Source: Apteryx mantelli (Eukaryota). From it: a stretch of DNA of 64,000 bases. The notes under the pieces are model-generated. The model did not search any database. It was given only the letters and a program-made list of their open reading frames with translations, and was not told the origin of the DNA. The stretch lies in contig NC_090015.1 in NCBI RefSeq assembly GCF_036417845.1, positions 1-64,000 of the forward strand, in the 5' to 3' direction. How positions within the stretch are numbered: position 1 is the stretch's first letter; every line of letters begins with the position of its first letter. Both the position numbers and the translations under genes were made by a program. This document shows, in pieces, positions 19,304 through 64,000 of this stretch.

Positions 19304-19569
19304 GTGCGGGCGGTGGTGGGCCAGACCTACATGCTGACGGCGACGGAGGAGCTGTGGGAGAAGGAGCTGGCGCCCGGCGTGGAGGCGCTGCTGGCGGCCG
19401 CCCGCGACCCCCGGGGCCAGCGCGGGGCCACCGCCGGGGACATCGGGGACGTCGGGGACGACGCCGGGGACACGGCGGGGCGGCGGCGCGACCGCACGCG
19501 GGCCGTCACCTTCCGCGTGCCCCACAACGCCGCCATGCAGCTCTACGACTACCGGGAGCGGCGGGCGCG
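19304..19569 (+). CDS. MVP: MVP coding exon ([88 protein letters not shown]+cg); AG 19302-19303, donor GT 19570-19571 (gtgagc); 3' phase 2
   Basis: Matches MVP '[30 protein letters not shown]...[25 protein letters not shown]'. It contains an in-frame GGGGAC(A/G)TC repeat (GDIGDVGDD) related to the downstream intronic satellite. Confidence 0.85.
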
Positions 19570-31640: not shown

Positions 31641-33150
31641 AATGTCCCCAGAGCTCGAACCCCGTGATCTGCCCGGCCCTGTTCAGCTTCAGCGAGGCCC
31701 CATGTCCCCAATGTCCCCAATGTCCCCGACGTCCCCAATGTCCCTGATGTCCCCAATGCCCCCAATATCTCCAATGTCCCCGATGTCCCCAATGTCCCTG
31801 ATGTCCCTGATGTCCCCAATGTCCCCGACGTCCCCATCGTCCCTGATGTCCCCAATGCCCCCAATATCTCCAATGTCCCCGATGTCCCCAATGTCCCTGA
31901 TGTCCCTGATGTCCCCAACGTCCCTGATGTCCCCAATGCCCCCAATATCTCCAATGTCCCCGATGTCCCCAATGTCCCTGATGTCCCCGATGTCCCCAGA
32001 ACTCCAACCGGGTGATCTGCTCGGCCGTGTTCGGCTTCAACGAGGCCCCATGTCCCTAATGTCCCGTAATGTCCCCAATGCCCCGTAATGTCCCCGATGT
32101 CCCCAACATCCTCAATGTCCCCAATGTCCCCAACGTCCCCGATGTCCCCGACGTCCCCGCCGTCCCCAGAACTCCAACCGGGTGATCTGCTCGGCCGTGT
32201 TCGGCTTCGATGAGGCCCCGTGTCCATAATGTCCCGTAATGTCCCCAATGTCCCCAACATCCTCAATGTCCCCAATGTCCCCGATGTCCCTGATGTCCCT
32301 GACGTCCCCGCCGTCCCCAGAACTCCAACCGGGTGATCTGCTCGGCCACGTTCGGCTTCGACGAGGCCCCGTGTCCATAATGTCCCGTAATGTCCCCAAT
32401 GTCCCCAAGGTCCCCGACATCCCCAATGTCCCCGATGTCCTGACATCCCCGATGTCCCCAATGTCCCCGATGTCCCCAGAACTCCAACTGGGTGATCTGC
32501 TCGGCTGTGTTCGGCTTCGATGAGGCCCCGTGTCCCTAATGTCCTGTAATGTCCCCGATGTCCCAACGTCCCCAACGTCCCCAATGTCCTCAATGTCCCC
32601 AACATCCCTGATGTCCCCAACGTCCCTGATGTCCCCAGAACTCCAACCGGGTGATCTGCTCAGCCGTGTTCGGCTTCGACGAGGCCCCGTGTCCATAATG
32701 TCCCATGATGTCCCCAACATCCCTGATGGCCCTGATGTCCCCGACGTCCCTGATGTCCCCGATGTCCCTGATGTCCCCAACGTCCCTGCTGTCCCCAGAA
32801 CTCCAACCGGGTGATCTGCTCGGCCGTGTTCGGCTTCAACGAGGCCCCGTGTCCCTAATGTCCCATGATGTCCCCGATGTCCCCAACGTCCCTGATGTCC
32901 CCGATGTCCCCGACGTCCCCAACGTCCCCAGAACTCCAACCGGGTGATCTGCTCGGCCGTGTTCGGCTTCGACAAGACCCTATGTCCCTAATGTCCCGTA
33001 ATGTCCCCGATGTCCCGTAATGTCCCTGCTGTCCCCAACATCCTCAATGTCCCCAACGTCTCCGATGTCCCCGACATCCCTGATGTCCCCGATGTCCCCA
33101 GAACTCCAACCGGGTGATCTGCTCGGCCGTGTTCGGCTTCGACGAGGCCC
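31640..33150 (+). other. Nine copies of the exon-11 acceptor plus its 5' 50 nt (ccccag|aactccaaccgggtgatctgctcggccgtgttcggcttcgacgag), starting at 31652 (degenerate), 32000, 32170, 32321, 32480, 32639, 32799, 32932 and 33102
   Basis: Near-identical strings recur every 133-170 bp inside a higher-order repeat of 15-21-bp 'gatgtcccc' units. The copies continue gccccgtgtcc, whereas the real exon at 33253 continues ggcggccgcctgcgc. Confidence 0.85.
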
Positions 33151-33252
33151 CGTGTCCCTAATGTCCCGTAATGTCCCCAATGTCCCCAACGTCCCCGATG
33201 TCCCCGATGTCCCTGACGTCCCCGATGTCCCCAATGTCCCCGATGTCCCCAG

Positions 33253-33465
33253 AACTCCCAACCGGGTGATCTGCTCGGCCGTGTTCGGCTTCGACGAGGG
33301 CGGCCGCCTGCGCGAGCGCCTCCGCTTCGCCCCCAACGGCCTGGTGGTCACCAGCGTGGACATCCAGAGCGTGGAGCCCGTGGACCAGCGGACGCGCGAC
33401 GCCCTGCAGCGCAGCGTCCAGCTCGCCATCGAGATCGCCACCAACTCCCAGGAGGCCACCGCCAG
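33253..33465 (+). CDS. MVP: MVP coding exon ([70 protein letters not shown]-ag); AG 33251-33252, donor GT 33466-33467. Apparent +1 frameshift in a C-run near 33257-33259
   Basis: Matches MVP 'NSARIIRMAVFGFE...[47 protein letters not shown]'. The nine upstream truncated copies read aactccaaccgg in frame, whereas this copy reads aactcccaaccgg. Confidence 0.7.
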
Positions 33466-36359: not shown

Positions 36360-36950
36360 CCTTCCCAGCATGCCCCGGGGCTCCTCCGCCTTCCCAGCGT
36401 GCCCCGGGGCAACTGCCTTCCCAGCATGCCCTGGGGCAACCACCCTCCCGGGGGACCTGGGCGCCCTCCGCTAGTCTAGACCATCTCAGGCTCCTCCACT
36501 ATCCCAGAATGCCCTGGGGGCCTTTGCTATCCCAGCATGCCCTAGGGCTCCTCTGCCTTCCCAGCATGCCCCGGGGCTCCTCCACCTTCCCAGCATGCCC
36601 TGGGGTTCCTCCACCTTCCCAGCATGCCCCGGGGCAACCACCCTCCCAGGGGACCTGGGCGCCCTCTGCTAGTCTAGACCATCTCCGGCTCCTCCACTAT
36701 CCCAGAATGCCCTGGGGGGGCCTCTGCTATCCCAGCGTGCCCCGGGGCTCCTCCACCTTCCCAGCATGCTCCGGGGCTCCTCTGCTATCCCAGCATGCCC
36801 TGGGGCCTTCAGCCATCCCAGCATGCCCTGGGTTCCTCCACCATCCCACCATGCCCCAGGGCCCCTCCACTATCCCAGCATCCCCCAGGGCTGCTCTGAT
36901 ATCCCAGCATGCACCAGGGCCCTCAGCCATCCCAGCATGCCCTGGGGCTC
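36360..36950. repeat. Tandem repeat of about 30-bp units (cccagcatgccc(c/t)ggggctcctccaccttc), with about 180-bp higher-order periodicity
   Basis: The blocks at 36361-36480 and 36541-36670 are near-identical. Confidence 0.85.
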
Positions 36951-37311
36951 CTCCGGGGGCAGAGCCACGTGTGTGTGGGGGGGGTGCCTTGGTGTGGGGG
37001 CGTGGCCTGAGGGAGGGCAGGTGCTGGGTGGGGGCGTGGCTTTGGCAGGGGGCGTGGCCTGGGGTGGCTGGCGCTCTGGAGGGGGGCGTGGCTTGGCGCA
37101 AGGGCTGGGTGGGGGTGGGCAGGGCTGGGCGTGGGGGGGCGTGGCTTGGCGGTGGGCGTGGCCCGGTGGGCGGGAACACCCCCAGGAGCAGGGGAGGTGG
37201 GAATGGAGCCCCTGGGCCAGGGGGAGGGGGGCTCCCGCAGCTCAGTTTGGGAGGGGGCGTGGCCTGGGGCGGGGGGGCGGGGTCACCTCGCGGTGACCCC
37301 GCCCCTTGCAG

Positions 37312-37438
37312 CGCGGCGGTGGAGAGCACGGGGGCGGCGCGGGCGGAGGCGCAGGCCCGGGCGGAGGCCGCCCGCATCGAGGGCGAAGCCGCCATCCTGC
37401 AGGCCAAGCTCAAGGCCGAGGCCGCCGCCATCGAGGCG
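37312..37438 (+). CDS. MVP: MVP coding exon (c-[42 protein letters not shown]); AG 37310-37311, donor GT 37439-37440
   Basis: Matches MVP '[42 protein letters not shown]'. Confidence 0.88.
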
Positions 37439-37439
37439 G

Positions 37440-38580
37440 TGCGTGCGGGGCGGGCGGGGGGCGGGGCTTGGCGGCGCGGGGGGCGGGGCTTGGCGGCGGG
37501 GGGGGCGACCGCGTGGCGGAGGGGGGGCGGGCAGGGTGGAGGGGGGGGGTGTCTGAGCGCGGCCACGCCCCCAGGGGGCGGGGCTGCCGCACGCGCAGGC
37601 GCGGTAGCCGCGGGGGGGGGGTGAAGGGGAGCGCGCAGGCGCAGTAGCCGCGGAAAGGGGGGGCGGCCAGGTGAGCGCGCAGGCGCAGTAGCCGCCGTGG
37701 GGGGGGCCGAGTGCGCAGGCGCGGTTGCCCGGGGGGGGGGCAAGGGGAGCGCGGAGGCGCAGTAGCCGCGGTGGGGGGGGGGGGGTTGAGTCGAGCGCGC
37801 AGGCGCAGAAGCCGCGGGGGGGGGGGGGTGAGGCGAGCGCGCAGGCGCAGTAGCGACGGTGGGGGGCGGCCAGAAGAGCGCGCAGGCGCAATAGCCGCGG
37901 GGGGGGGGGGTTGAGGGGAGCGCGCAGGCGCAGTAGCCACGTGGGGGGGGTTGAGGCGAGCGCGCAGGCGCAGTAGCCGCGGGGGGGTGGCAAGGGGAGC
38001 GCGCAGGCGCAGTAGCCGCGGTGGGGGGGGGGTTGAGTCGAGCGCGCAGGCGCAGAAGCCGCGGGGGGGGGGGTGAGGCGAGCGCGCAGGCGCAGTAGCG
38101 ACGGTGGGGGGGCGGCCAGAAGAGCGCGCAGGCGCAGTAGCCGCGGGGGGGGGGGGTTGAGGCGAGCGCGCAGGCGCAGTAGCCGCGGGGGGGGGGGGCA
38201 GGGCGGCAAGGGGAGCGCGCAGGCGCAGTAGCCACGTGGGGGGTTGAGGGGAGCGCGCAGGCGCAGTAGCCGGGGGGGTGAGGGGAGCGCGCAGGCGCAG
38301 TTGCCGCGGGGGGGGGGCTGAGGCGAGCACGCAGGCGCAGTAGCCGCGGAGGGGGGGGGGGGGGGGCGGCAAGGCGAGCGCGCAGGCGCAGTAGCTGCGG
38401 TGGGGGGGTGAGGCGAGCGCGCAGGCGCAGTAGCCGCGGGGGGGGGCTGAGGCGAGCGCGCAGGCGCAGTAGCCGCGGGGGGGGGGGAGAAGCGGCGGCC
38501 AGGGGAGAGCGCAGGCGCGGCAGGTTCGCCGGGCGCGGGGGGGGGGGGGGGAGGTGTCCCGCGGCGGGCGGGGCCGTGCC
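37440..38580. repeat. Tandem repeat of about 40-45-bp units (tgaggcgagcgcgcaggcgcagtagccgcg + G8-12) with a 240-bp higher-order period. The core GAGCGCGCAGGCGCAG matches the exon-14 5' region
   Basis: 37741-37980 equals 37981-38220. Every unit carries a G-run of 8-12 nt. Confidence 0.9.
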
Positions 38581-38612
38581 TGACGGCGGCCCCGCCCCCC
38601 CCCACCGCGCAG

Positions 38613-38802
38613 GAGGCGGAGCTGGCGCGGCTGGAGCGCGCGCAGGCGCAGGAGCTGCGGGTGCGGCGGGCGCGGGCGGAGGCGGAGGCGGCGCACGCGC
38701 AGGCCATGGCCGAGGTGGAGGGGGGGGCGCGTGCGCGACGTGGCCGCCGCCCTCGGCCCTGACGTCATCCGCGACATCGCGCGCGCCGGGCCCGAGCTCC
38801 AG
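38613..38802 (+). CDS. MVP: MVP coding exon (EAELARLERAQAQELRVRRARAEAEAAHAQAMAEVEGG[fs]RVRDVAAALGPDVIRDIARAGPELQ); AG 38611-38612, donor GT 38803-38804. Apparent +1 frameshift in the G7 run at 38721-38727
   Basis: Matches MVP '[63 protein letters not shown]'. The upstream frame (phase from 38613) and the downstream frame (from 38731) differ by one nucleotide across a 7-G run. Confidence 0.7.
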
Positions 38803-38804
38803 GT

Positions 38805-39420
38805 GGGCGGGGCCTCTGCGCGTGCGCGGGGGGGGGAACCGCGCGGTGGGGGGGCGGGGCCTGCGCGGTGGGGGGCGGGGCCATGGGGGGGTTGCCCCGG
38901 GGGTGGGGTCGCGGGGGGGTTGGGGTCCCAATGGGGGAGGGGCCCCAAAGGTGGTGGGCGGGACCTGGAGGGGGCGGGGTCTCCGTGGGTGGGGGCGTGG
39001 CCCTGGCGGGGGTGGGCGGGCCAAGAAGGGGGGGTCTCCCCACAGGAGCAGGGTCCAAGTGGGCTGGGCGGGGCCTCGGTGGGGGCGGGGCCTGAAGGGG
39101 AGTGGGTGGAGCACGAAGGGGGCACCCAATGGGGGTGGGGCCTCGAGGGGGGTCCCCAGGGGAGTGGGCGGGGCCTCGAGGCAGAGGTGGGGCCCGATGG
39201 GGGCGGGGCCTCCAAGGAGAGTGGGGCCTTGAAGGGGAGGGGCTCCCTCTGAGGGGCGTGACTTCTACTTGGGGGCGGGGCCAGGGGCAGCTCGCTCTCC
39301 CCCAGGGAGGGCGGGGGAGGCCGCCGGGGCGGGAAAGAGGGGAGGGGCGTGGCCCGTGGCTGGTGGGTGTGGCCTGAGGGGTGTGGCCCGAGGAGGGGGC
39401 GTGGCCTGAGAGGGGGCGTG
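38805..39420. repeat. Degenerate GC-rich repeat (gggcggggcctcgaggg / ggggcgtggcc) in MVP intron 14
   Basis: Direct reading. Confidence 0.6.
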
Positions 39421-39428
39421 TCCCACAG

Positions 39429-39566
39429 GTGAAGCTGCTGCAGGGCCTGGGGCTGCAGTCGACGCTCATCACCGACGGCGCCGCCCCCCTCAACCTCTTC
39501 GCCACCGCCCGGGGGCTCCTGGGGCTGGCCCCGCCCCCCGACCCCGCCCCCGGACACGCCCCCTGA
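39429..39566 (+). CDS. MVP: MVP terminal coding exon ([45 protein letters not shown]); AG 39427-39428; stop TGA 39564-39566
   Basis: Matches MVP C-terminus '[43 protein letters not shown]'. The frame matches ORF 39381..39566. Confidence 0.9.
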
Positions 39567-39596
39567 GCCCCCCGGGCTCCGCCCCCCCCGCTCGCC

Positions 39597-39602
39597 AATA
39601 AA
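39597..39602 (+). terminator. MVP: AATAAA polyadenylation signal of MVP (3'UTR about 39567-39620)
   Basis: Canonical aataaa lies 31 nt after the stop codon, followed by a GT-rich stretch (ggcagtgatgatgtcgtgg). Confidence 0.7.
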
Positions 39603-40150
39603 GGCGGCCCTTGGCAGTGATGATGTCGTGGCGGTGATGTCAGCGGTGGGGGCGGGGCACTGGGGGCGGGGTGTCACAGGATTGGGGGCTGGGCACTGTG
39701 ACGTCATCAAGGCGGGGCTGCTGCTGGCTGTGATGTCACAGCTCTGGGAGCGTGGCGACCAATGAGGTCGGGGCGGCGCACCCGGGCGTGATGTCATCAG
39801 CTTTGGGGGGGAGGGGGCCGGGGTGTGATGTCATGGCCCCGGGGGGGGGGGCGTTGGGGGCCGTGATGTCATAGGGCCGGGGGAGGGGGCGGGGCTGCGA
39901 TGTCGCAGGGCGGCGCCGGGGGCTGTGATGTCACCGGGCTGGGGCGTGACGTCACCAGGCTGCGGTGTGATGTCACCGGGGTGGGGGCGTGATGTCACCG
40001 GGCTGCGGTGTGATGTCACCGGGCTGGGACGCGACGTCGGGGTGGGGGGGGGGGGCAGCGCTGGGGGTCGTGATGTCACCAGGCTGCATGTGTGATGTCA
40101 CCGAGCTGGGGTGTGATGTCACCGAGCTGGGGCGTGATGTCACCAGGGTG
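39600..40150. repeat. Array of about 16 units of about 30-40 bp centred on GTGA(T/C)GTCA(C/T) (CRE-like TGACGTCA / TGATGTCA), in the convergent intergenic space
   Basis: gtgatgtcaccgggctgg, gcgtgacgtcaccaggctgcg and ctgtgacgtcatcaaggcgg recur. Confidence 0.85.
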
Positions 40151-42032: not shown

Positions 42033-42293
42033 TCAGGGAGGCGCCGGTGGGCGGAAGAGGCGCCAGGCGCCGCGGCAGATGAGGCCGAACCAGTAGAGCT
42101 GGGGGGCGAGGAGGGCGGCGGCGGCAGCGTTGTAGGCAGCAGGCAGCGCCGCCGGCACCCGCAGCAGCGGCAGCCCCGCGTGGCGCCCGTAGGCCCAGTA
42201 CAGGTAAGGGAAGAGCAGCACCCGGCACCCGAAGAAGGTCACCAGCATGGCCAAGCCGTTGAGCTTGTGCAGCGCCGTGTGTTGCCGCTTGTA
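42033..42293 (-). CDS. TLCD3B: TLCD3B (FAM57B) terminal coding exon ([86 protein letters not shown])
   Basis: Minus-strand translation aligns to the TLC-domain protein FAM57B/TLCD3B C-terminus '...[48 protein letters not shown]...[21 protein letters not shown]'. The minus-strand acceptor cag lies at plus 42294-42296. The frame matches ORF 42033..42317(-). Confidence 0.85.
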   Translation of the reverse strand, partial: [86 protein letters not shown]

Positions 42294-42339
42294 CTGCCGG
42301 GTGAAGAGGGGGGACAACGGGGGACGCGGTCAGCGCGTA

Positions 42340-42900
42340 GGGGGTGGCCGGGGTCACCTCTATGGTCTCCCGAGGGATCCTGGTGGCCGGGGACCCTGGT
42401 TCACCCCTATGTTCTCCTGAGGGACCCGGGTGTCTGGTGGCCCCGATCCATCCCTACGTCCTCCTGAGGGACCCAGGTGTCCGGGGATCCTGGTGTCTGG
42501 TGGCCCCGATCCATCCCTACGTCCTCCCGAGGGACCCAGGTGTCCGGGGACCCTGGTTCACCCCTATGTTCTCCTGAGGAACCCGGGTGTCTGGTGGCCC
42601 CGATCCATCCCTACGTCCTCCCGAGGGACCCAGGTGGCCGGGGATCCTGGTTCACCCCTATGTTCTCCTGAGGAACCCGGGTGTCTGGTGGCCCCGATCC
42701 ATCCCTACGTCCTCCTGAGGGACCCAGGTGGCCAGGGACCCTGGTTCACCCCTATGTTCTCCTGAGGGACCCGGGTGTCTGGTGGCCCCGATCCATCCCT
42801 ACGTCCTCCCGAGGGACCCAGGTGGCCGGAGACCCAAGTGACCAGTGGCCCCGATCCACCCCACGTCTTCCCAAGGGACCCAGGCGTCCGGGCCCCACCC
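42340..42900. repeat. Tandem repeat of about 46/92-bp units (ctggtggccccgatccatccctacgtcctcctgagggacccaggtgtccgg…ggttcacccctatgttctcctgag), in the last TLCD3B intron
   Basis: ORFs 42344.., 42430.. and 42477.. share peptides. Confidence 0.85.
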
Positions 42901-42936
42901 CGCCCTCCCCCCGAGGGGCCCAGGCGTCCGGCTCAC

Positions 42937-43032
42937 CAGGATGAGCACCTTGCCGAGGCAGACGAAGGGGGTGCTCAGCTCCGCCATGAGGAGGCAGCCC
43001 AAGAAGAAGTCGCCCTTGCCCTGGCGCCACAG
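42937..43032 (-). CDS. TLCD3B: TLCD3B coding exon ([32 protein letters not shown]); 96 bp, phase 0 at both ends; minus-strand donor gtgagc
   Basis: Aligns to FAM57B '[32 protein letters not shown]'. It is flanked by cag|ctg on the acceptor side and ctg|gtgagc on the donor side on the minus strand. Confidence 0.8.
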
Positions 43033-43039
43033 CTGGGGA

Positions 43040-43760
43040 CACGAGGGGGGACACGGGGGGACACGGGGGGGGACACGGGTCACACGGGGGGGGGACACGG
43101 ACACAGGTCACAAGGGGGAACAGGAGGACATGGGTCACATGACGTGGAGGACACCACCAGGACGTGGGGTGGCCTACCCGGGTTGCCCCCATCCCCACGG
43201 TGTCCCCAAGGTGTCCCCAACCCCCTCCCAACTCACGGAGGCCACAGGGAAGCAGAGCAGCACCGTGGTGGCCACCTCCTTGCCATGGTGGTGGCCTCCC
43301 ATCCCGTGTTCCCCAAGAGGTTCCTCCATCCCCGAGCCATCTCTGTCCCCATGGTGTCCCCAGCTGCTGTCCCCACTCGATGGGGAAGCAGACGAGGACC
43401 ATGGTGGCCACCACGAGCCCATCCTCGCCGACGTGGTGGCCACCCATCCCGTGTCTCCAAGAGGTTCCTCCGTCTCCAAGCCATGCTGGTGCCCCCAGGG
43501 TGTCCCCAACCCCCGTCCCCACTCATGGTGACCACGAGGACGCAGACGAGCACCACGGTGGCCACCACGAGAACGTCCCCGCCGAGGTGGTGGCCCCCCA
43601 ACGCCACGTCCCCAAGAAGGTTCCTCCGCCCCCCCCAAGCCCCGTCCCCACGGGGAAGCAGACGAGCACCACGGCGGCCACCACGAGACCATCCCCGCCA
43701 CGGTGGTGGCCCTCCATGCCACGTCCCCAAGAAGGTTCCTCCATCCCCGTCCCCTACTCA
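43040..43760. repeat. Tandem repeat of about 130-150-bp units derived from the TLCD3B exon end and donor
   Basis: See the TLCD3B copy feature above. Recurrent strings are gaagcagacgagcaccacgg(c/t)ggccaccacgag. Confidence 0.75.
43225..43700 (-). other. Four degenerate copies of the TLCD3B exon 3' end plus donor (…LVCFPVAA|gtgagt), in the adjacent intron at plus 43225-43290, 43355-43420, 43510-43580 and 43625-43700
   Basis: Minus-strand strings such as ctgctctgcttccctgtggcctccgtgagttgg, ctgcgtcctcgtggtcaccatgagtgggg and ctcgtctgcttccccgtggggacgg recur at a period of about 130-150 bp. Confidence 0.7.
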
Positions 43761-43761
43761 C

Positions 43762-43981
43762 GGCGGCCACGGGGAAGCAGACGAGCACCATGGCGGCGTG
43801 GTGGAGCACCATGAGCAGGTCCTTGCGGAGGTAGGCGGCGGCGGCGGCCCGCAGCGACGGCGGTGGCCCGGCCTCGTGGCCCTTGACGCGTCCCCGGTGC
43901 CAGTGGCAGAGGAACATGGCGTAGACGTCGTAGACGAAGTAGGGCACCGCGAACTCCGGGTAGGCGCCCGCCAGCCAGTGC
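43762..43981 (-). CDS. TLCD3B: TLCD3B coding exon (g-HWLAGAYPEFAVPYFVYDVYAMFLCHWHRGRVKGHEAGPPPSLRAAAAAYLRKDLLMVLHHAAMVLVCFPVAA); minus-strand donor gtgagt. The 5' (acceptor) boundary is uncertain
   Basis: Aligns to FAM57B 'QHWLSSAYTQFAVPYFIYDIYAMFLCHWH...YLHKEFLMVLHHAAMVLVCFP'. The conserved HH motif of the TLC domain is present. The open frame continues upstream into the 58-bp satellite, so I inferred the acceptor at 'acag|g' (plus 43981-43983). Confidence 0.65.
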
Positions 43982-43989
43982 CTGTCCCC

Positions 43990-46900
43990 AAAAATGACGT
44001 CAGGGGACCCAGGCGTCCGGGAGGGACCCAGGCGTCCGGGCAGGGACCCGGGTGTCCAGGGGACCCGGGTGTTTGGTGGCCTCGTGGCCACCATCTCCCC
44101 TGGTTTCACTCTACATCTGGGTCATCTTCAAGGGACCCAGGCGTCCGGGGAGACTCGTGTCACCTCTAGAGGGACCAGGCGTCCGGGAGGGGCCCAGGCG
44201 TCCGGGGAGTCTCGCGTCACCTCTAGGGGGACCCGGGCGTCCGGGAGGGGCCCAGGCGTCCGGGGAGTCTCGCGTCACCTCTAGGGGGACCCGGGCGTCC
44301 GGGAGGGGCCCAGGCGTCCGGGGAGCCTCGCGTCACCTCTAGGGGACCCGGGCGTCCGGGAGGGGCCCAGGCGTCCGGGGAGTCTCGCGTCACCTCTAGG
44401 GGGACCCGGGCGTCCGGGAGGGGCCCAGGCGTCCGGGGAGTCTCGCGTCACCTCCAGGGGGACCCGGGCGTCCGGGAGGGGCCCAGGCGTCCGGGGAGCC
44501 TCGCATCACCTCTAGGGGGACCCGGGCGTCCGGGAGGGGCCCAGGCGTCCGGGGAGTCTCGCGTCACCTCTAGAGGGACCCGGGCGTCCGGGAGGGGCCC
44601 AGGCGTCCGGGGAGTCTCGCGTCACCTCTAGAGGGACCCGGGCGTCCGGGAGGGGCCCAGGCGTCCGGGGAGTCTCGCGTCACCTCTAGGGGCACCCGGG
44701 CGTCCGGGAGGGGCCCAGGCGTCCGGGGAGTCTCGCGTCACCTCTAGGGGGACCCGGGCGTCCGGGAGGGGCCCAGGCGTCCGGGGAGTCTCGCGTCGCC
44801 TCTAGGGGGACCCGGGCGTCCGGGAGGGGCCCAGGCGTCCGGGGAGTCTCGCGTCACCTCTAGGGGGACCCGGGCGTCCGGGAGGGGCCCAGGCGTCCGG
44901 GGAGTCTCGCGTCACCTCTAGGGGGACCCGGGCGTCCGGGAGGGGCCCAGGCGTCCGGGGAGTCTCGCGTCACCTCTAGGGGGACCCGGGCGTGCTGGAG
45001 GGGCCCAGGCGTCCGGGGAGTCTCGCGTCGCCTCTAGGGGGACCCGGGCGTCCGGGAGGGGCCCAGGCGTCCGGGGAGTCTCGCGTCGCCTCTAGGGGGA
45101 CCCGGGCGTCCGGGAGGGGCCCAGGCGTCCGGGGAGCCTCGCGTCACCTCTAGGGGGACCCGGGCGTCCGGGAGGGGCCCAGGCGTCCGGGGAGCCTCGT
45201 GTCACCTCTAGGGGGGCCCGGGCGTCCGGGAGGGGCCCAGGCGTCCGGGGAGTCTCGCGTCACCTCTAGGGGGACCCGGGCGTCCGGGAGGGGCCCAGGC
45301 GTCCGGGGAGTCTCCTGTCACCTCTAGGGGCACCCGGGCGTCCGGGAGGGGCCCAGGCGTCCGGGGAGTCTCGCGTCACCTCTAGGGGACCCGGGCGTGC
45401 GGGAGGGGCCCAGGCGTCCGGGGAGTCTCGCGTCACCTCTAGGGGGACCCGGGCGTCCGGGAGGGGCCCAGGCGTCCGGGGAGCCTCGCGTCACCTCTAG
45501 GGGGACCCGGGCGTCCGGGAGGGGCCCAGGCGTCCGGGGAGTCTCGCGTCACCTCTAGAGGGACCCGGGCGTCCGGGAGGGGCCCAGGCGTCCGGGGAGC
45601 CTCGCGTCACCTCTAGAGGGACCCGGGCGTCCGGGAGGGGCCCAGGCGTCCGGGGAGTCTCGCGTCACCTCTAGGGGGACCCGGGCGTCCGGGAGGGGCC
45701 CAGGCGTCCGGGGAGTCTCGCGTCACCTCTAGGGGGACCCGGGCGTCCGGGAGGGGCCCAGGCGTCCGGGGAGTCTCGCGTCGCCTCTAGGGGGACCCGG
45801 GCGTCCGGGAGGGGCCCAGGCGTCCGGGGAGTCTCGCGTCACCTCTAGGGGGACCCGGGCGTCCGGGAGGGGCCCAGGCGTCCGGGGAGTCTCGCGTCAC
45901 CTCTAGGAGACCCGGGCGTCCGGGAGGGGCCCAGGCGTCCGGGGAGTCTCGCGTCACCTCTAGGGGGACCCGGGCGTCCGGGAGGGGCCCAGGCGTCCGA
46001 GGAGTCTGGCGTCACCTCTAGGGGGACCCGGGCGTCCGGGAGGGGCCCAGGCGTCCGGGGAGTCTCGCGTCACCTCTAGGGGGACCCGGGCGTCCGGGAG
46101 GGGCCCAGGCGTCCGGGGAGTCTCGCGTCACCTCTAGGGGGACCCGGGCGTCCGGGAGGGGCCCAGGCGTCCGGGGAGTCTCGCGTCACCTCTAGGGGGA
46201 CCCGGGCGTCCGGGAGGGGCCCAGGCGTCCGGGGAGTCTCGCGTCACCTCTAGAGGGACCCAGGTGTCCGGGAGGGGCCCAGGCGTCCGGGGAGTCTCGC
46301 GTCGCCTCTAGGGGGACCCGGGCGTCCGGGAGGGGCCCAGGCGTCCGGGGAGTCTCGCGTCACCTCTAGGGGGACCCGGGCGTCCGGGAGGGGCCCAGGC
46401 GTCCGAGGAGTCTGGCGTCACCTCTAGGGGGACCCGGGCGTCCGGGAGGGGCCCAGGCGTCCGGGGAGTCTCGCGTCACCTCTAGGGGGACCCGGGCGTC
46501 CGGGAGGGGCCCAGGCGTCCGGGGAGTCTCGCGTCACCTCTAGGAGACCCGGGCGTCCGGGAGGGGCCCAGGCGTCCGGGGAGTCTCGCGTCACCTCTAG
46601 AGGGACCCAGGCGTGCGGGAGGGGCCCAGGCGTCCGGGGAGTCTCGCGTCACCTCTAGAGGGACCCAGGCGTGCGGGAGGGGCCCAGGCGTCCGGGGAGT
46701 CTCGCGTCACCTCTAGGGGGACCCGGGCGTCCGGGAGGGGCCCAGGCGTCCGGGGAGTCTCGCGTCACCTCTAGGGGGACCCAGGTGTCCGAGAGGGGCC
46801 CAGGCGTCCGGGGAGTCTCGCGTCACCTTTACGGGGACCCAGGAGTCCGGGAGGGGCCCAGGCGTCCGGGGAGTCTCGCGTCGCCTCTAGGGGGACCCGG

Positions 46901-49900
46901 GTGTCCGGGAGGGGCCCAGGCGTCCGGGGAGGGGCCCAGGCGTCCGGGGAGTCTCGCGTCACCTCTAGGGGGACCCGGGCGTCCGGGAGGGGCCCAGGCG
47001 TCCGGGGAGTCTCGCGTCACCTCTAGGGGACCCGGGCGTCCGGGAGGGGCCCAGGCGTCTGGGGAGCCTCGTGTCACCTCTAGAGGGGCCCAGGCGTCCG
47101 GGGAGTCTGGCGTCACCTCTAGGGGGACCCGGGCGTCCGGGAGGGGCCCAGGCGTCTGGGGAGCCTCGTGTCACCTCTAGAGGGGCCCAGGCGTCCGGGG
47201 AGTCTGGCGTCACCTCTAGGGGGACCCGGGCGTCCGGGAGGGGCCCAGGCGTCTGGGGAGCCTCGTGTCACCTCTAGAGGGGCCCAGGCGTCCGGGGAGT
47301 CTGGCGTCACCTCTAGGGGGACCCGGGCGTCCGGGAGGGGCCCAGGCGTCCGGGGGGTCTCGCGTCACCTCTAGAGGGGCCCAGGCGTCCGGGGAGTCTG
47401 GCGTCACCTCTAGGGGGACCCGGGCGTCCGGGAGGGGCCCAGGCGTCTGGGGAGCCTCGTGTCACCTCTAGAGGGGCCCAGGCGTCCGGGGAGTCTCGCG
47501 TCACCTCTAGAGGGACCCGGGCGTCCGGGAGGGGCCCAGGCGTCCGGGGAGCCTCGCGTCACCTCTAGGGGGACCCGGGCGTGCGGGAGGGGCCCAGGCG
47601 TCCGGGGAGTCTCGTGTCACCTCTAGGGGGACCCAAGTGTCCGGGAGGGGCCCAGGCGTCCGGGGAGTCTCGCGTCACCTCTAGGGGGACCCGGGCGTGC
47701 GGGAGGGGCCCAGGCGTCCGGGGAGTCTCGCGTCACCTCTAGGGGGACCCGGGCGTGCGGGAGGGGCCCAGGCGTCCGGGGAGTCTCGTGTCACCTCTAG
47801 GGGGACCCGGGCGTCCGGGAGGGGCCCAGGCGTCCGGGGAGTCTCGCGTCACCTCTAGAGGGACCCGGGCGTCCGGGAGGGGCCCAGGCGTCCGGGGAGT
47901 CTCGTGTCACCTCTAGGGGGACCCGGGCGTCCGGGAGGGGCCCAGGCGTCCGGGGAGTCTCGCGTCACCTCTAGGGGGACCCGGGCGTCCGGGAGGGGCC
48001 CAGGCGTCCGGGGAGCCTCGCGTCACCTCTAGGGGGACCCGGGCGTCCGGGAGGGGCCCAGGCGTCCGGGGAGTCTCGCGTCACCTCTAGGGGGACCCGG
48101 GCGTCCGGGAGGGGCCCAGGCGTCCGGGGAGTCTCGCGTCACCTCTGGGGGGACCCGGGCGTCCGGGAGGGGCCCAGGCGTCCGGGGAGTCTCGCGTCAC
48201 CTCTAGAGGGGCCCAGGCGTCCGGGGAGTCTCGCGTCACCTCTGGGGGGACCCGGGCGTCCGGGAGGGGCCCAGGCGTCCGGGGAGTCTCGCGTCACCTC
48301 TAGGGGGACCCGGGCGTCCGGGAGGGGCCCAGGCGTCCGGGGAGCCTCGCGTCACCTCTAGGGGGACCCGGGCGTCCGGGAGGGGCCCAGGCGTCCGGGG
48401 AGTCTCGCGTCACCTCTAGGGGGACCCAGGCGTCCGGGAGGGGCCCAGGCGTCCGGGGAGTCTCGCGTCACCTCTAGGGGGACCCGGGCGTCCGGGAGGG
48501 GCCCAGGCGTCCGGGGAGTCTCGCGTCACCTCTAGGGGGACCCGGGCGTCCGGGAGGGGCCCAGGCGTCAGGGGAGTCTGGCGTCACCTCTAGGGGGACC
48601 CGGGCGTCCGCGAGGGGCCCAGGCGTCCGGGGAGCCTCGCGTCACCTCTAGGGGGACCCGGGCGTCCGGGAGGGGCCCAGGCGTCCGGGGAGTCTCGCGT
48701 CACCTCTAGGGGGACCCGGGCGTCCGGGAGGGGCCCAGGCGTCCGGGGAGTCTCGCGTCGCCTCTACGGGGACCCGGGCGTCCGGGAGGGGCCCAGGCGT
48801 CCGGGGAGTCTCGCGTCACCTCTAGAGGGACCCGGGCGTCCGGGAGGGGCCCAGGCGTCCGGGGAGTCTCGCGTCACCTCTAGGGGGACCCGGGCGTCCG
48901 GGAGGGGCCCAGGCGTCCGGGGAGCCTCGCGTCACCTCTAGGGGGACCCGGGCGTCCGGGAGGGGCCCAGGCGTCCGGGGAGTCTCGCGTCACCTCTAGG
49001 GGGACCCGGGCGTCCGGGAGGGGCCCAGGCGTCCGGGGAGTCTCGCGTCACCTCTAGGGGGACCCGGGCGTCCGGGAGGGGCCCAGGCGTCCGGGGAGCC
49101 TCGCGTCGCCTCTAGGGGGACCCGGGCGTCCGGGAGGGGCCCAGGCGTCCGGGGAGTCTCGCGTCACCTCTAGAGGGACCCGGGCGTCCGCGAGGGGCCC
49201 AGGCGTCCGGGGAGTCTCGCGTCGCCTCTAGGGGACCCGGGCGTCCGGGAGGGGCCCAGGCGTCCGGGGAGCCTCGCGTCACCTCTAGGGGGACCCGGGC
49301 GTCCGGGAGGGGCCCAGGCGTCCGGGGAGTCTCGCGTCACCTCTAGGGGGACCCGGGCGTCCGGGAGGGGCCCAGGCGTCCGGGGAGTCTCGCGTCACCT
49401 CTAGGGGGGCCCAGGCGTCCGGGGAGTCTCGCGTCACCTCTAGGGGGACCCGGGCGTCCGGGAGGGGCCCAGGCGTCCGGGGAGTCTCGCGTCACCTCTA
49501 GGGGGGCCCAGGCGTCCGGGGAGTCTCGCGTCACCTCTAGGGGGACCCGGGCGTCCGGGAGGGGCCCAGGCGTCCGGGGAGTCTCGCGTCACCTCTAGGG
49601 GGACCCAGGTTTCCGGGAGGGGCCCAGGCGTCCGGGGAGTCTCGCGTCACCTCTAGGGGGACCCGGGCGTCCGGGAGGGGCCCAGGCGTCCGGGGCATCT
49701 CGCGTCACCTCTAGGGGGACCCGGGCGTGCGGGAGGGGCCCAGGCGTCCGGGGAGTCTCGCGTCACCTCTAGGGGGACCCGGGCGTCCGGGAGGGGCCCA
49801 GGCGTCCGGGGAGTCTCGCGTCACCTCTAGGGGACCCGGGCGTCCGGGAGGGGCCCAGGCGTCCGGGGAGCCTCGCGTCACCTCTAGGGGGGCCCGGGCG

Positions 49901-52900
49901 TCCGGGAGGGGCCCAGGCGTCCGGGGAGTCTCGCGTCACCTCTAGGGGGACCCGGGCGTCCGGGAGGGGCCCAGGCGTCCGGGGAGTCTCGCGTCACCTC
50001 TAGGGGGACCCGGGCGTCCGGGAGGGGCCCAGGCGTCCGGGGAGTCTCGCGTCACCTCTGGGGGGACCCGGGCGTGCGGGAGGGGCCCAGGCGTCCGGGG
50101 AGTCTCGCGTCACCTCTAGGGGGACCCGGGCGTCCGGGAGGGGCCCAGGCGTCCGGGGAGTCTCGCGTCACCTCTAGGGGGACCCGGGCGTCCGAGGGGG
50201 GCCCAGGCGTCCGGGGAGTCTCGCGTCACCTCTAGGGGGACCCGGGCGTCCGGGAGGGGCCCAGGCGTCCGGGGAGCCTCGCGTCACCTCTAGGGGGACC
50301 CGGGCGTCCGGGAGGGGCCCAGGCGTCCGGGGAGTCTCGCGTCACCTCTAGGGGGACCCGGGCGTCCGGGAGGGGCCCAGGCGTCCGGGGAGCCTCGCGT
50401 CACCTCTAGGGGGACCCGGGCGTCCGGGAGGGGCCCAGGCGTCCGGGGAGTCTCGCGTCACCTCTAGGGGGACCCGGGCGTCCGGGAGGGGCCCAGGCGT
50501 CCGGGGAGCCTCGCGTCACCTCTAGAGGGGCCAGGCGTCCGCGGAGTCTCGCGTCACCTCTAGGGGACCCAGGTGTCCGGGGAGTCTCGTGTCATCTCTA
50601 GGGGACCCAGGTGTCCGGGGAGTCTCGTGTCACCTCTAGGGGGACCCGGGCGTCCGGGAGGGGCCCAGGCGTCCGCGGAGTCTCGCGTCACCTCTAGGGG
50701 ACCCAGGTGTCCGGGGAGTCTCGTGTCATCTCTAGGGGACCCAGGTGTCCGGGGAGTCTCGCGTCACCTCTAGGGGGACCCGGGCGTCCGGGAGGGGCCC
50801 AGGCGTCCGGGGAGTCTCGCGTCATCTCTAGGGGACCCAGGTGTCCGGGGAGTCTCGTGTCACCTCTAGGGGGACCCGGGCGTCCGGGAGGGGCCCAGGC
50901 GTCCGGGGAGTCTCGCGTCACCTCTAGAGGGACCAGGTGTCCGTGAGGGGCCCAGGTGTCCGGGAGGGGCCCAGGCGTCCGGGGAGCCTCGCGTCACCTC
51001 TAGGGGGACCCGGGCGTCCGGGAGGGGCCCAGGCGTCCGGGGAGTCTCGCGTCACCTCTAGAGGGACCCGGGCGTCCGGGAGGGGCCCAGGCGTCCGGGG
51101 AGTCTCGCGTCACCTCTAGGGGGACCCGGGCGTCCGGGAGGGGCCCAGGCGTCCGGGGAGTCTCGCGTCACCTCTAGGGGGACCCGGGCGTCCGGGAGGG
51201 GCCCAGGCGTCCGGGGAGTCTGGCGTCACCTCTACGGGGACCCGGGCGTCCGGGAGGGGCCCAGGCGTCCGGGGAGTCTCGCGTCACCTCTAGAGGGACC
51301 CGGGCGTCCGGGAGGGGCCCAGGCGTCCGGGGAGTCTCGCGTCACCTCTAGGGGGACCCGGGCGTCCGCGAGGGGCCCAGGCGTCCGGGGAGCCTCGCGT
51401 CACCTCTAGGGGGACCCGGGCGTCCGGGAGGGGCCCAGGCGTCCGGGGAGTCTCGCGTCACCTCTAGGGGGACCCGGGCGTCCGGGAGGGGCCCAGGCGT
51501 CCGGGGAGTCTCGCGTCACCTCTAGGGGGACCCGGGCGTCCGGGAGGGGCCCAGGCGTCCGGGGAGTCTCGCGTCACCTCTAGGGGGACCCGGGCGTCCG
51601 GGAGGGGCCCAGGCGTCCGGGGAGTCTCGCGTCACCTCTAGGGGGACCCGGGCGTCCGGGAGGGGCCCAGGCGTCCGGGGAGCCTCGCGTCACCTCTAGG
51701 GGGGCCCGGGTGTCCGGGAGGGGCCCAGGCGTCCGGGGAGCCTCGCGTCACCTCTGAGGGGACCCGGGCGTGCGGGAGGGGCCCAGGCGTCCGGGGAGCC
51801 TCGCGTCACCTCTAGGGGGACCCGGGCGTCTGGGAGGGGCCCAGGCGTCCGGGGAGTCTCGCGTCACCTCTAGGGGGACCCGGGCGTCCGGGAGGGGCCC
51901 AGGCGTCCGGGGAGTCTCGCGTCACCTCTAGGGGGACCCGGGCGTCCGGGAGGGGCCCAGGCGTCCGGGGAGTCTCGCGTCACCTCTAGGGGGACCCGGG
52001 CGTCCGGGAGGGGCCCAGGCGTCCGGGGAGTCTTGCGTCACCTCTAGGGGGACCCGGGCGTCCGGGAGGGGCCCAGGCGTCCGGGGAGCCTCGCGTCGCC
52101 TCTAGGGGGACCCGGGCGTCCGGGAGGGGCCCAGGCGTCCGGGGAGCCTCGCGTCACCTCTAGGGGCACCCGGGCGTCCGGGAGGGGCCCAGGCGTCCGG
52201 GGAGTCTCGCGTCACCTCTAGAGGGACCCGGGCGTCCGCGAGGGGCCCAGGCGTCCGGGGAGTCTCGCGTCGCCTCTAGGGGACCCGGGCGTCCGGGAGG
52301 GGCCCAGGCGTCCGGGGAGTCTCGCGTCACCTCTAGGGGGACCCGGGCGTCCGGGAGGGGCCCAGGCGTCCGGGGAGTCTCGCGTCACCTCTAGGGGGGC
52401 CCAGGCGTCCGGGGAGTCTCGCGTCACCTCTAGGGGGACCCGGGCGTCCGGGAGGGGCCCAGGCGTCCGGGGAGTCTCCTGTCACCTCTAGGGGGACCCG
52501 GGCGTCCGGGAGGGGCCCAGGCGTCCGGGGAGTCTCGCGTCACCTCTAGGGGGACCCGGGCGTCCGGGAGGGGCCCAGGCGTCCGGGGAGTCTCGCGTCA
52601 CCTCTAGGGGGACCCGGGCGTCTGGGAGGGGCCCAGGCGTCCGGGGAGTCTCGCGTCACCTCTAGGGGGCCCAGGCGTCCGGGAGGGGCCCAGGCGTCCG
52701 GGGAGTCTCGCGTCACCTCTAGGGGGACCCGGGCGTCCGGGAGGGGCCCAGGCGTCCGGGGAGTCTCGCGTCACCTCTAGGGGGACCCGGGCGTCCGGGA
52801 GGGGCCCAGGCGTCCGGGGAGTCTCGCGTCACCTCTAGAGGGACCCGGGCGTCCGGGAGGGGCCCAGGCGTCCGGGCAGTCTCGCGTCACCTCTAGGGGG

Positions 52901-55900
52901 ACCCGGGCGTCCGGGAGGGGCCCAGGCGTCCGGGGAGTCTCGCGTCGCCTCTAGGGGGACCCGGGCGTCCGGGAGGGGCCCAGGCGTCCGGGGAGTCTCG
53001 CGTCACCTCTAAGGGGACCCGGGCGTCCGCGAGGGGCCCAGGTGTCCGGGGAGTCTCGCGTCACCTCTGGGGGGACCCGGGCGTCCGGGAGGGGCCCAGG
53101 CGTCCGGGGAGTCTCGCGTCACCTCTAGGGGGACCCGGGCGTCCGGGAGGGGCCCAGGCGTCCGGGGAGTCTCGCGTCACCTCTAGGGGGACCCGGGCGT
53201 CCGGGAGGGGCCCAGGCGTCCGGGGAGTCTCGCGTCACCTCTAGGGGGGCCCAGGCGTCCGGGGAGTCTCGCGTCACCTCTAGGGGGACCCGGGCGTCCG
53301 GGAGGGGCCCAGGCGTCCGGGGAGTCTCCTGTCACCTCTAGGGGGACCCAGGTTTCCGGGAGGGGCCCAGGCGTCCGGGGAGTCTCGCGTCACCTCTAGG
53401 GGGACCCGGGCGTCCGGGAGGGGCCCAGGCGTCCGGGGCATCTCGCGTCACCTCTAGGGGGACCCGGGCGTGCGGGAGGGGCCCAGGCGTCCGGGGAGTC
53501 TCGCGTCACCTCTAGGGGACCCGGGCGTCCGGGAGGGGCCCAGGCGTCCGGGGAGTCTCGCGTCACCTCTAGGGGGACCCGGGCGTGCGGGAGGGGCCCA
53601 GGCGTCCGGGGAGTCTCGCGTCACCTCTAGGGGGCCCAGGCGTCCGGGAGGGGCCCAGGCGTCCGGGGAGTCTCGCGTCACCTCTAGGGGGACCCGGGCG
53701 TCCGGGAGGGGCCCAGGCGTCCGGGGAGTCTCGCGTCACCTCTAGGGGGACCCGGGCGTCCGGGAGGGGCCCAGGCGTCCGGGGAGTCTCGCGTCACCTC
53801 TAGGGGACCCGGGCGTCCGGGAGGGGCCCAGGCGTCCGGGGAGTCTCGCGTCACCTCTAGGGGGACCCGGGCGTCCGGGAGGGGCCCAGGCGTCCGGGGA
53901 GTCTCGCGTCACCTCTAGGGGGGCCCGGGCGTCCGGGAGGGGCCCAGGCGTCCGGGGAGTCTCGCGTCACCTCTAGGGGACCCGGGCGTCTGGGAGGGGC
54001 CCAGGTGTCCGGGGAGGGGCCCAGGCGTCCGGGGAGTCTCGCGTCACCTCTAGGGGACCCGGGCGTCCGGGAGGGGCCCAGGCGTCCGGGGAGCCTCGCG
54101 TCACCTCTAGGGGGACCCGGGCGTCCGGGAGGGGCCCAGGCGTCCGGGGAGTCTCGCGTCACCTCTAGGGGGACCCGGGCGTCCGGGAGGGGCCCAGGCG
54201 TCCGGGGAGTCTCGCGTCACCTCTAGGGGGACCCGGGCGTCCGGGAGGGGCCCAGGCGTCCGGGGAGTCTCGCGTCACCTCTAGGGGGACCCGGGCGTCC
54301 GGGAGGGGCCCAGGCGTCCGGGGAGTCTCGCGTCACCTCTAGGGGGACCCGGGCGTCCGGGAGGGGCCCAGGCGTCCGGGGAGTCTCGCGTCACCTCCGG
54401 GGGGACCCGGGCGTGCGGGAGGGGCCCAGGCGTCCGGGGAGTCTCGCGTCACCTCTAGGGAGACCCGGGCGTCCGGGAGGGGCCCAGGCGTCCGGGGAGT
54501 CTCGCGTCACCTCTAGGGGGACCCGGGCGTCCGGGAGGGGCCCCAGGCGTCCGGGGAGTCTCGCGTCACCTCTGGGGGGACCCGGGCGTCCGGGAGGGGC
54601 CCAGGCGTCCGGGGAGTCTCGCGTCACCTCTAGGGGGACCCGGGCGTCCGGGAGGGGCCCAGGCGTCCGGGGAGTCTCGCGTCACCTCTAGGGGGACCCG
54701 GGCGTCCGGGAGGGGCCCAGGCGTCCGGGGAGTCTCGCGTCACCTCTAGGGGGACCCGGGCGTCCGGGAGGGGCCCAGGCGTCCGGGGAGCCTCGCGTCA
54801 CCTCTAGGGGACCCGGGCGTCCGGGAGGGGCCCAGGCGTCCGGGGAGTCTGGCGTCACCTCTAGGGGGACCCGGGCGTCCGGGAGGGGCCCAGGCGTCCG
54901 GGGAGTCTCGCGTCACCTCTAGGGGGACCCGGGCGTGCGGGAGGGGCCCAGGCGTCCGGGGAGTCTCGCGTCACCTCTAGGGGGACCCGGGCGTCCGGGA
55001 GGGGCCCAGGCGTCCGGGGAGTCTCGCGTCACCTCTAGGGGGACCCGGGCGTCCGCGAGGGGCCCAGGCGTCCGGGGAGTCTCGCGTCACCTCTAGGGGA
55101 CCCGGGCGTCCGGGAGGGGCCCAGGCGTCCGGGGAGTCTGGCGTCACCTCTAGGGGGACCCGGGCGTCCGGGAGGGGCCCAGGCGTCCGGGGAGTCTCGC
55201 GTCACCTCTAGGGGGACCCGGGCGTCCGGGAGGGGCCCAGGCGTCCGGGGAGTCTCGCGTCACCTCTAGGGGGACCTAGGAGTCCGGGAGGGGCCCAGGC
55301 GTCCGGGGAGTCTCCTGTCACCTCTAGGGGGACCCGGGCGTCCGGGAGGGGCCCAGGCGTCCGGGCAGTCTCGCGTCACCTCTAGGGGGACCCGGGCGTC
55401 CGGGAGGGGCCCAGGCGTCCGGGGAGCCTCGCGTCACCTCTAGGGGGACCCGGGCGTGCGGGAGGGGCCCAGGCGTCCGGGGAGCCTCGCGTCACCTCTA
55501 GAGGGACCCGGGCGTCCGGGAGGGGCCCAGGCGTCCGGGGAGCCTCGCGTCACCTCTAGGGGACCCGGGCGTGCGGGAGGGGCCCAGGCGTCCGGGGAGT
55601 CTCGCGTCACCTCTAGGGGGACCCGGGCGTCCGGGAGGGGCCCAGGCGTCCGGGAGGGGCCCAGGCGTCCGGGGAGCCTCGCGGTCACCTCTAGGGGGAC
55701 CCGGGCGTCCGGGAGGGGCCCAGGCGTCCGGGGAGCCTCGCGTCACCTCTAGGGGGACCCGGGCGTCCGGGAGGGGCCCAGGCGTCCGGGGAGTCTCGCG
55801 TCACCTCTAGGGGGACCCGGGCGTCCGGGAGGGGCCCAGGCGTCCGGGGAGTCTCGCGTCACCTCTAGGGGGACCCGGGCGTCCGGGAGGGGCCCAGGCG

Positions 55901-61900: not shown

Positions 61901-64000
61901 GGACCCGGGCGTCCGGGAGGGGCCCAGGCGTCCGGGGAGCCTCGCGTCACCTCTAGGGGGACCCGGGCGTCCGGGAGGGGCCCAGGCGTCCGGGGAGTCT
62001 CGCGTCACCTCTAGGGGGACCAAGGTGTCCGGGAGGGGCCCAGGCGTCCGGGGAGCCTCGCGTCACCTCTAGGGGGACCCGGGCGTGCGGGAGGGGCCCA
62101 GGCGTCCGGGGAGCCTCGCGTCACCTCTAGGGGGACCCGGGCGTCCGGGAGGGGCCCAGGCGTCCGGGGAGTCTCGCGTCACCTCTAGGGGGACCAAGGT
62201 GTCCGGGAGGGGCCCAGGCGTCCGGGGAGCCTCGCGTCACCTCTAGGGGGACCCGGGCGTGCGGGAGGGGCCCAGGCGTCCGGGGAGTCTCGCGTCACCT
62301 CTAGGGGGACCCGGGCGTCCGGGAGGGGCCCAGGCGTCCGGGGAGTCTCGTGTCACCTCTAGAGGGGCCCAGGCGTCCGGGGAGCCTCGCGTCACCTCTA
62401 GGGGGACCCGGGCGTCCGGGAGGGGCCCAGGCGTCCGGGGAGCCTCGCGTCACCTCTAGGGGGACCCGGGCGTCCGGGAGGGGCCCAGGCGTCCGGGGAG
62501 TCTCGCGTCACCTCTAGGGGGACCAAGGTGTCCGGGAGGGGCCCAGGCGTCCGGGGAGCCTCGCGTCACCTCTAGGGGGACCCGGGCGTGCGGGAGGGGC
62601 CCAGGCGTCCGGGGAGTCTCGCGTCACCTCTAGGGGGACCCGGGCGTCCGGGAGGGGCCCAGGCGTCCGGGGAGCCTCGCGTCACCTCTAGAGGGACCCG
62701 GGCGTCCGGGAGGGGCCCAGGCGTCCGGGGAGTCTCGCGTCACCTCTAGGGGGACCCGGGCGTCCGGGAGGGGCCCAGGCGTCCGGGGAGTCTCGCGTCA
62801 CCTCTAGGGGGACCCGGGCGTGCGGGAGGGGCCCAGGCGTCCGGGGAGTCTCGCGTCACCTCTAGGGGACCCGGGCGTGCGGGAGGGGCCCAGGCGTCCG
62901 GGGAGTCTCGCGTCACCTCTAGGGGGACCCAGGCGTCCGGGAGGGGCCCAGGCGTCCGGGGAGCCTCGCGTCACCTCTAGGGGGACCCGGGCGTGCGGGA
63001 GGGGCCCAGGCGTCCGGGGAGTCTCGCGTCACCTCCGGGGGGACCCGGGCGTGCGGGAGGGGCCCAGGCGTCCGGGGAGTCTCGCGTCACCTCTAGGGGG
63101 ACCCGGGCGTCCGGGAGGGGCCCAGGCGTCCGGGGAGTCTCGCGTCACCTCTAGGGGGACCCGGGCGTCCGGGAGGGGCCCAGGCGTCCGGGGAGTCTCG
63201 CGTCACCTCTGGGGGGACCCGGGCGTGCGGGAGGGGCCCAGGCGTCCGGGGAGTCTCGCGTCACCTCTAGGGGGACCCGGGCGTCCGGGAGGGGCCCAGG
63301 CGTCCGGGGAGTCTCGCGTCACCTCTAGAGGGACCCAGGTGTCCGGGAGGGGCCCAGGCGTCCGGGGAGTCTCGCGTCACCTCTAGGGGGACCCGGGCGT
63401 CCGGGAGGGGCCCAGGCGTCCGGGGAGTCTCGCGTCACCTCTAGAGGGGCCCGGGCGTCCGGGAGGGGCCCAGGCGTCCGGGGAGTCTCGTGTCACCTCT
63501 AGAGGGGCCCAGGCGTCCGGGGAGTCTCGCGTCACCTCTAGAGGGGCCCGGGCGTCCGGGAGGGGCCCAGGCGTCCGGGGAGTCTCGCGTCACCTCTAGA
63601 GGGACCCAGGTGTCCGGGAGGGGCCCAGGCGTCCGGGGAGTCTCGCGTCACCTCTAGGGGGACCCGGGCGTCCGGGAGGGGCCCAGGCGTCCGGGGAGCC
63701 TCGCGTCACCTCTAGGGGGACCCGGGCGTCCGGGAGGGGCCCAGGCGTCCGGGGAGTCTCGCGTCACCTCTAGGGGGACCCGGGCGTCCGGGAGGGGCCC
63801 AGGCGTCCGGGGAGTCTCGCGTCACCTCTAGAGGGACCCAGGTGTCCGGGAGGGGCCCAGGCGTCCGGGGAGTCTCGCGTCACCTCTAGGGGGACCCAGG
63901 TGTCCGGGAGGGGCCCAGGCGTCCGGGGAGTCTCGCGTCACCTCTAGGGGGACCCAGGTGTCCGGGAGGGGCCCAGGCGTCCGGGGAGTCTCGCGTCACC
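43990..64000. repeat. Satellite array of at least 20 kb built from a 58-bp unit (ctagggggacccgggcgtccgggaggggcccaggcgtccggggagtctcgcgtcacct), at least 340 copies, continuing past the window end. A 97-bp higher-order sub-domain lies at about 47040-47500
   Basis: The ctagggggac anchor recurs at 58-bp steps (44223, 44281, ...). The unit is an internal 20-bp half-duplication (gggacccgggcgtccgggag / gggcccaggcgtccggggag) plus tctcgcgtcacctcta. ORFs 47071, 47168 and 47265 show the 97-bp period. Confidence 0.95.

Follow-up and report, generated by a model that had tools for sequence, protein, structure and literature searches.

The MVP gene in the 64,000-nucleotide stretch of DNA analyzed here (the window) lacks an uninterrupted reading frame: as written, its coding sequence leaves the frame at 33259 and shifts again in a run of G residues at 38720–38727. 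The question raised by the second site is whether the surplus G belongs to the genome, so that a conserved gene has been broken, or was introduced on the way to the assembled sequence. What is observed is an extra base at the position of the longest homopolymer of the coding sequence, intact genes in the relatives, and constraint downstream of the break. As developed below, the extra base is probably a homopolymer-length error of the assembly, which we consider the best explanation.

Identity and organization of the MVP locus

The part of MVP that lies in the window comprises 2,484 nt of coding sequence, with the ATG exon upstream of the window (Table 1). The exons were mapped by tblastn with a human MVP sequence that served as a probe only. 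The 15 acceptors in the window are invariably AG and the 14 internal donors invariably GT, the stop codon is TGA (39564–39566), and a poly(A) signal, AATAAA, is present at 39597–39602. The translation of the repaired gene, from which both extra bases have been removed, matches the Pfam families Vault, Vault_2/3/4, and MVP_shoulder (PF01505, PF17794-6, PF11978), all five far above their cut-offs. Its C-terminal 254 residues (NSNR to the C terminus) align with residues 594–857 of human MVP in solved vault structures (E = 1e-89), an alignment that was obtained only with both extra bases removed. In a search with the full-length repaired protein, the nearest sequences are those of emu (~92% identity) and ostrich (~91%; 91–93% for the pair) and a partial sequence from Rhea pennata (89%), and the MVPs of neognath birds are 77–83% identical. 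A query consisting of the C-terminal 374 residues matched only turtle and fragmentary sequences; the bird MVPs were reached with the full-length query. With the 63 residues of the repaired penultimate exon as the sole query, a word-indexed protein search gave no match, a false negative without weight, as emu MVP in that database shares 60 of the 63 residues; short low-complexity queries are prone to this.

Table 1. Positions and supporting observations for the features of the window
Feature	Position	Strand	Basis or remarks
Part of MVP gene within the window, 15 coding exons	909–39566	+	tblastn exon map; AG/GT ends; Pfam; identity to emu
MVP exon with the other +1 break, 213 nt (emu, ostrich 212 nt)	33253–33465	+	AAC TCC C AAC CGG
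G-rich minisatellite, 42 nt, CGCGCAGGCGCAGTAGCCGCGGGGGGGGGGTGAGGCGAG, ~22 copies, G10–G18 runs	37592–38518	+	Intron just upstream of the affected exon
Penultimate MVP coding exon, 190 nt (emu, ostrich 189 nt)	38613–38802	+	AG/GT ends
Upstream exon segment, window frame 3, EAELARLERAQAQELRVRRARAEAEAAHAQAMAEVEGG plus one surplus G	38613–38727	+	Alignment with emu and ostrich
8-G run holding the +1 insertion	38720–38727	+	Emu, 7 G; ostrich, GGGCGCG
Downstream exon segment, window frame 1, RVRDVAAALGPDVIRDIARAGPELQ	38728–38802	+	Identical to emu peptide
Last MVP coding exon	39429–39566	+	In frame with the downstream segment only; zero gaps versus emu and ostrich
Two overlapping antisense ORFs, 795 and 800 aa, over the 3' exons of MVP	36727–39797	−	P/A/R-rich; no Pfam match
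TLC-domain (TRAM_LAG1_CLN8) gene, three exons	42033–44109	−	Intact; 97–100% protein identity to ostrich
GC-rich 58-bp satellite array, ~20 kb, consensus GGGGCCCAGGCGTCCGGGGAGTCTCGCGTCACCTCTAGGGGGACCCGGGCGTCCGGGA	44131–64000		Higher-order periods of 116 and 174 bp; extends to the end of the window

Orthologous DNA was compared from the MVP loci of emu (GCA_036370855.1) and ostrich (GCA_040807025.1). The exons of the window gene correspond one for one to those of both species, with the same phases and lengths except for the two exons that carry an extra nucleotide (213 versus 212 nt and 190 versus 189 nt) and for differences in multiples of 3 nt that are confined to two low-complexity patches. 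The domain set, which comprises the Vault repeats, the shoulder, and the cap-helix and cap-ring region, is the same, and the minus-strand TLC-domain gene lies downstream of MVP in all three genomes; the gene on the other side of MVP falls beyond the window. The window gene differs from its two counterparts in having longer introns and far more intronic repeats of exon edges. It is most likely the orthologous, functional MVP of a palaeognath bird, situated on a small chromosome that is very rich in GC and in minisatellites; the bird is distinct from emu, ostrich, and Rhea pennata, to which the MVP of the window is about equally close. The first exon in the window (909–1131) has a 27-nt in-frame GAC/GGT expansion at 986–1030, in a loop of the first Vault repeat; this expansion, being absent in all other aligned birds, is lineage-specific.

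The extra G in the penultimate coding exon

An earlier note on this DNA had described a second apparent +1 frameshift in a G7 run inside exon 14 of MVP. The string gggggggcgc does lie exactly at 38721–38730, and the frames on its two sides differ by one nucleotide, the conserved peptide being read in frame 3 upstream and in frame 1 downstream. The complete run comprises 8 G residues, the first of which is the last base of a GAG codon, and the 7 G residues of the note are the part that follows this codon. The exon is the 14th of MVP in the window but, counting the ATG exon upstream, the gene has at least 16 coding exons, of which this is the penultimate. The note had the downstream frame begin at 38731; it begins at 38728, with CGC (Arg). 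The sequence across the site is GTGGAGGGGGGGGCGCGTG. Read in frame 3 from 38613, the exon encodes a peptide ending in AQAMAEVEGG, continues past the G run as nonsense, and meets a TGA stop codon at 38760. Read in frame 1 from 38728, it encodes RVRDVAAALGPDVIRDIARAGPELQ and reaches a canonical donor (CAG/gt) at 38802/38803. The G8 run is the longest homopolymer of the MVP coding sequence and the sole run of at least 7 nt in any MVP exon; across the entire gene span there are 118 such runs, almost exclusively in introns.

The corresponding exon of emu reads GAG GGG GGG CGC and that of ostrich reads GAG GGC GCG CGC, both in exons of 189 nt, as compared with GAG GGGGGGG CGC in the 190-nt exon of the window. 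Alignments of the exon with emu and ostrich (~95% DNA identity) have only one gap, which falls within the G run of the window. Relative to its close orthologues, the window thus has a one-base difference within a mononucleotide run (G8 versus G7 in emu), and deletion of one G gives AEVEGGRVRDVAAALGPDVIRDIARAGPELQ, the same peptide as in emu. The repaired exon is identical to the emu protein in 60 of 63 residues. The note was therefore right that both flanks are well conserved and that a single G is in excess. The spacing of the peptide across the run is the same in 10 of 10 aligned birds and reptiles.

The exon maps to residues ~756–818 of human MVP and encodes the end of the cap-helix region, and the break is at the equivalent of human residues 792–794. 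This position is presumably near the end of the vault cap-helix as in the rat vault structure.

Antisense coding across the site was considered and rejected. The two minus-strand ORFs that overlap the 3' exons are low-complexity strings of Pro, Ala, and Arg, and such long ORFs are a by-product of the 75–78% GC content, so that ORF length by itself is meaningless here.

The second frame break

The other break is in the exon that begins at 33253, where an extra C can be placed within 33257–33259 (CC to CCC). The start of this exon in emu, ostrich, and rhea reads AAC TCG AAC CGG (AACTCGAACCGG); the Rhea pennata locus (JAQOLV010000166.1) covers only this first break, its contig ending at about exon 12. 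The window itself has eight intronic copies of the exon start, and all eight read AAC TCC AAC CGG, in frame (AACTCCAACCGG). The earlier note had counted two homopolymer-associated frameshifts in MVP; a second break is indeed present, but CC to CCC barely qualifies as a homopolymer. The possibility that the two frameshifts cancel each other was rejected, since they add up to +2 and the alignment of the last exon has no gaps.

Selection and integrity of the repaired gene

A codon alignment of the repaired window gene with emu and ostrich was used to assign differences to branches. Over the whole coding sequence, the window branch has 55 synonymous and 28 non-synonymous changes (pN/pS 0.19). The corresponding numbers are 18 and 4 past the first break (pN/pS 0.08) and 15 and 3 between the two breaks (pN/pS 0.07). 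Under neutrality, 72.5% of the changes past the first break are expected to be non-synonymous as compared with the 4 of 22 observed (P = 1.8e-7), and the constraint on the window branch in this part of the gene is at least as strong as on the emu and ostrich branches. The 68 codons past the G run have 3 synonymous changes and 1 non-synonymous change, too few for a separate test.

The repaired coding sequence has no in-frame stop codons and, beyond the two +1 insertions, no further lesions were found in the window gene among stop codons, splice-site losses, and indels that are not multiples of 3 nt. Apart from the insertions, the gene carries the signs of function that an assembly error would leave untouched: constraint, intact splice sites, and the lack of stop codons. 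Two features expected of a unitary pseudogene are missing. The gene has not accumulated additional lesions and shows no relaxation of constraint (dN/dS near 1), although a very recent inactivation would escape the latter test. Constraint, intact splice sites, the absence of stop codons, and indels in multiples of 3 nt together show that the frame has been under selection for essentially the whole of the lineage; an inactivation, if real, could only be extremely recent.

Repeats and sequence context

Local GC content around the affected exon is 78%. The minisatellite in the intron just upstream, which probably folds into G-quadruplexes, is hard for any sequencing platform and is likely to impair read quality or depth there. 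Several exon edges of MVP are repeated within introns of the window. (i) The 5' end of the exon at 33253, together with the polypyrimidine tract and the AG acceptor, recurs in the eight upstream copies described above (31998–33251; period ~150–170 bp); two extra copies of the exon start occur in emu and none in ostrich and rhea. (ii) The 3' end of the exon at 19304–19569 has two further copies (19520/21026/23519). (iii) The 5' end of the exon at 28169 has five further copies in intron 8 (26557, 27528, 27684, 27863, 28021, 28169). One exon edge of the TLC-domain gene is likewise repeated in an intron in both emu and ostrich. This stuttering of exon edges fits the intronic minisatellites and the "sequence stuttering" reported for bird dot chromosomes. 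Decoy acceptors in the copies could affect splicing.

The 58-bp satellite array appears to occupy an intron of the TLC-domain gene on the minus strand. Emu and ostrich have related repeats of much greater divergence (~63–67% identity) in the TLC-domain gene region downstream of MVP. Among the satellite units of 57–58 bp, 174 of 188 measure exactly 58 bp, and G4 replaces G5 in 14; in these units real variants are inseparable from errors. The three exons of the TLC-domain gene (~200 codons) contain no frame breaks. Because these exons are unbroken and most of the satellite units have the exact length, the region is not generally noisy.

Origin of the extra base

If the surplus G is an assembly error, the true exon sequence would most likely read GAG GGG GGG CGC (Glu-Gly-Gly-Arg), as in emu. 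The consensus would then contain 8 G residues in place of 7, and the resulting +1 shift would make MVP appear truncated about 70 codons short of its end. The additional base would have arisen during sequencing, consensus building, or polishing and not in the germ line. The suspicion of an error voiced in the earlier note is favored by the intact splice sites, the lack of stop codons, the indels in multiples of 3 nt, and the strong purifying selection, which fall short of proof. The homopolymer location is uninformative in this respect because slippage in the germ line also prefers homopolymers. An independent copy was sought through the exact products of three ORFs that span or adjoin the run, and none is on record.

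Published work on comparable sequences is in keeping with an error. Dot chromosomes of birds contain intronic minisatellites and G-quadruplex motifs, and lower PacBio depth goes together with this non-B DNA (10.1101/2025.10.17.683159). False indels and frameshifts in bird assemblies are concentrated in GC-rich exons (10.1101/2021.04.09.438906). The residual errors of long-read assemblies are described as mostly of homopolymer length (PMC8812927). Other bird assemblies also have visible difficulty with MVP: the model from the black-headed gull has the NCBI label "LOW QUALITY PROTEIN," and the Rhea pennata contig stops at the LLDQA codons.

An unlikely alternative is that the extra G is real and arose by very recent slippage in the germ line, the mutation being either fixed or present on the assembled haplotype. 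Together with the extra C at 33257–33259, it would make MVP a young unitary pseudogene or loss-of-function allele. A gene with two independent +1 breaks is what is expected of an early pseudogene, and runs of G are slippage hot spots. Neighboring coding sequence (~200 codons) and the satellite array have little indel noise, and CC to CCC is no classical context for a sequencing error. Mice in which MVP has been knocked out are viable, so that its loss could be tolerated. Against these points stands the lack of any other lesion, with stop codons at zero, splice sites kept, and only indels in multiples of 3 nt elsewhere. The low pN/pS past the first break (0.08, P = 1.8e-7) would confine inactivation to a tiny fraction at the tip of the branch. 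No breakage of MVP was found outside the window, the gene being intact in every other bird retrieved, and the in-frame CC is kept in each of the intronic copies of the exon-33253 start. That both insertions are real, so that the window would document a freshly inactivated MVP and a natural knockout of the vertebrate vault shell through slippage in a coding G run built by GC bias, appears quite improbable.

The many partial exon copies in the window could suggest a duplicated and decaying paralogue of MVP. They are intronic stutters of exon edges and do not form a second gene, each exon has its counterpart in emu and ostrich, with matching order, length, and phase, the same minus-strand neighbor lies downstream, and the gene is strongly constrained, which together make a paralogue very improbable. 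Rescue of the frame is hardly credible, whether through a micro-intron or an alternative splice site, through programmed +1 frameshifting of the ribosome, or through slippage of transcription in the G run; all that speaks for it is the open and conserved downstream frame. Residues conserved in emu flank the run directly (AEVEGG and RVRD), so that an intron would not fit, and the run offers neither another AG nor another GT that would restore the frame; the micro-intron or alternative splice named in the refuting scenario of the earlier note is thereby excluded. The peptide is read in one frame in both emu and ostrich, and hence neither a shift site nor a two-frame arrangement is conserved. The unrelated break at 33257–33259, where there is no NAGNAG-type acceptor, would need a rescue of its own. 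Transcriptional slippage is documented mainly for long runs of A or T.

Significance and comparison with known systems

The extra G most likely reflects an error of base calling or assembly where the sequence is very GC-rich, and not a biological feature; as such it has little biological weight, and its value is practical. If the extra G and the extra C are left uncorrected, annotation pipelines would call MVP a pseudogene, truncated, or a low quality protein, and the breaks could feed a false claim that MVP has been lost in a bird lineage. They also mark this GC-rich stretch of a small chromosome as in need of targeted polishing. Were the base real, this would be a vertebrate that has naturally lost its vault shell protein, a matter of modest interest because the function of vaults is still unclear.

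The window gene can be compared with two classes of known cases. Like young unitary pseudogenes inactivated by homopolymer slippage, it is frameshifted within a mononucleotide run and carries more than one disabling change; unlike them, it has no relaxed constraint, no stop codon, and no loss of splice sites, and its other indels are in frame. It differs from the homopolymer consensus errors of long-read assemblies in its companion break, CC to CCC, which involves no long homopolymer, and in being a case known from consensus sequence alone. With such errors in GC-rich bird genes it shares the one-base change, the position in the longest homopolymer of the coding sequence, and the otherwise intact and constrained gene. 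It also shares with this class, which is described in three sources (10.1101/2021.04.09.438906; PMC8812927; 10.1101/2025.10.17.683159), a setting rich in G-quadruplex motifs and minisatellites that resembles a dot chromosome.
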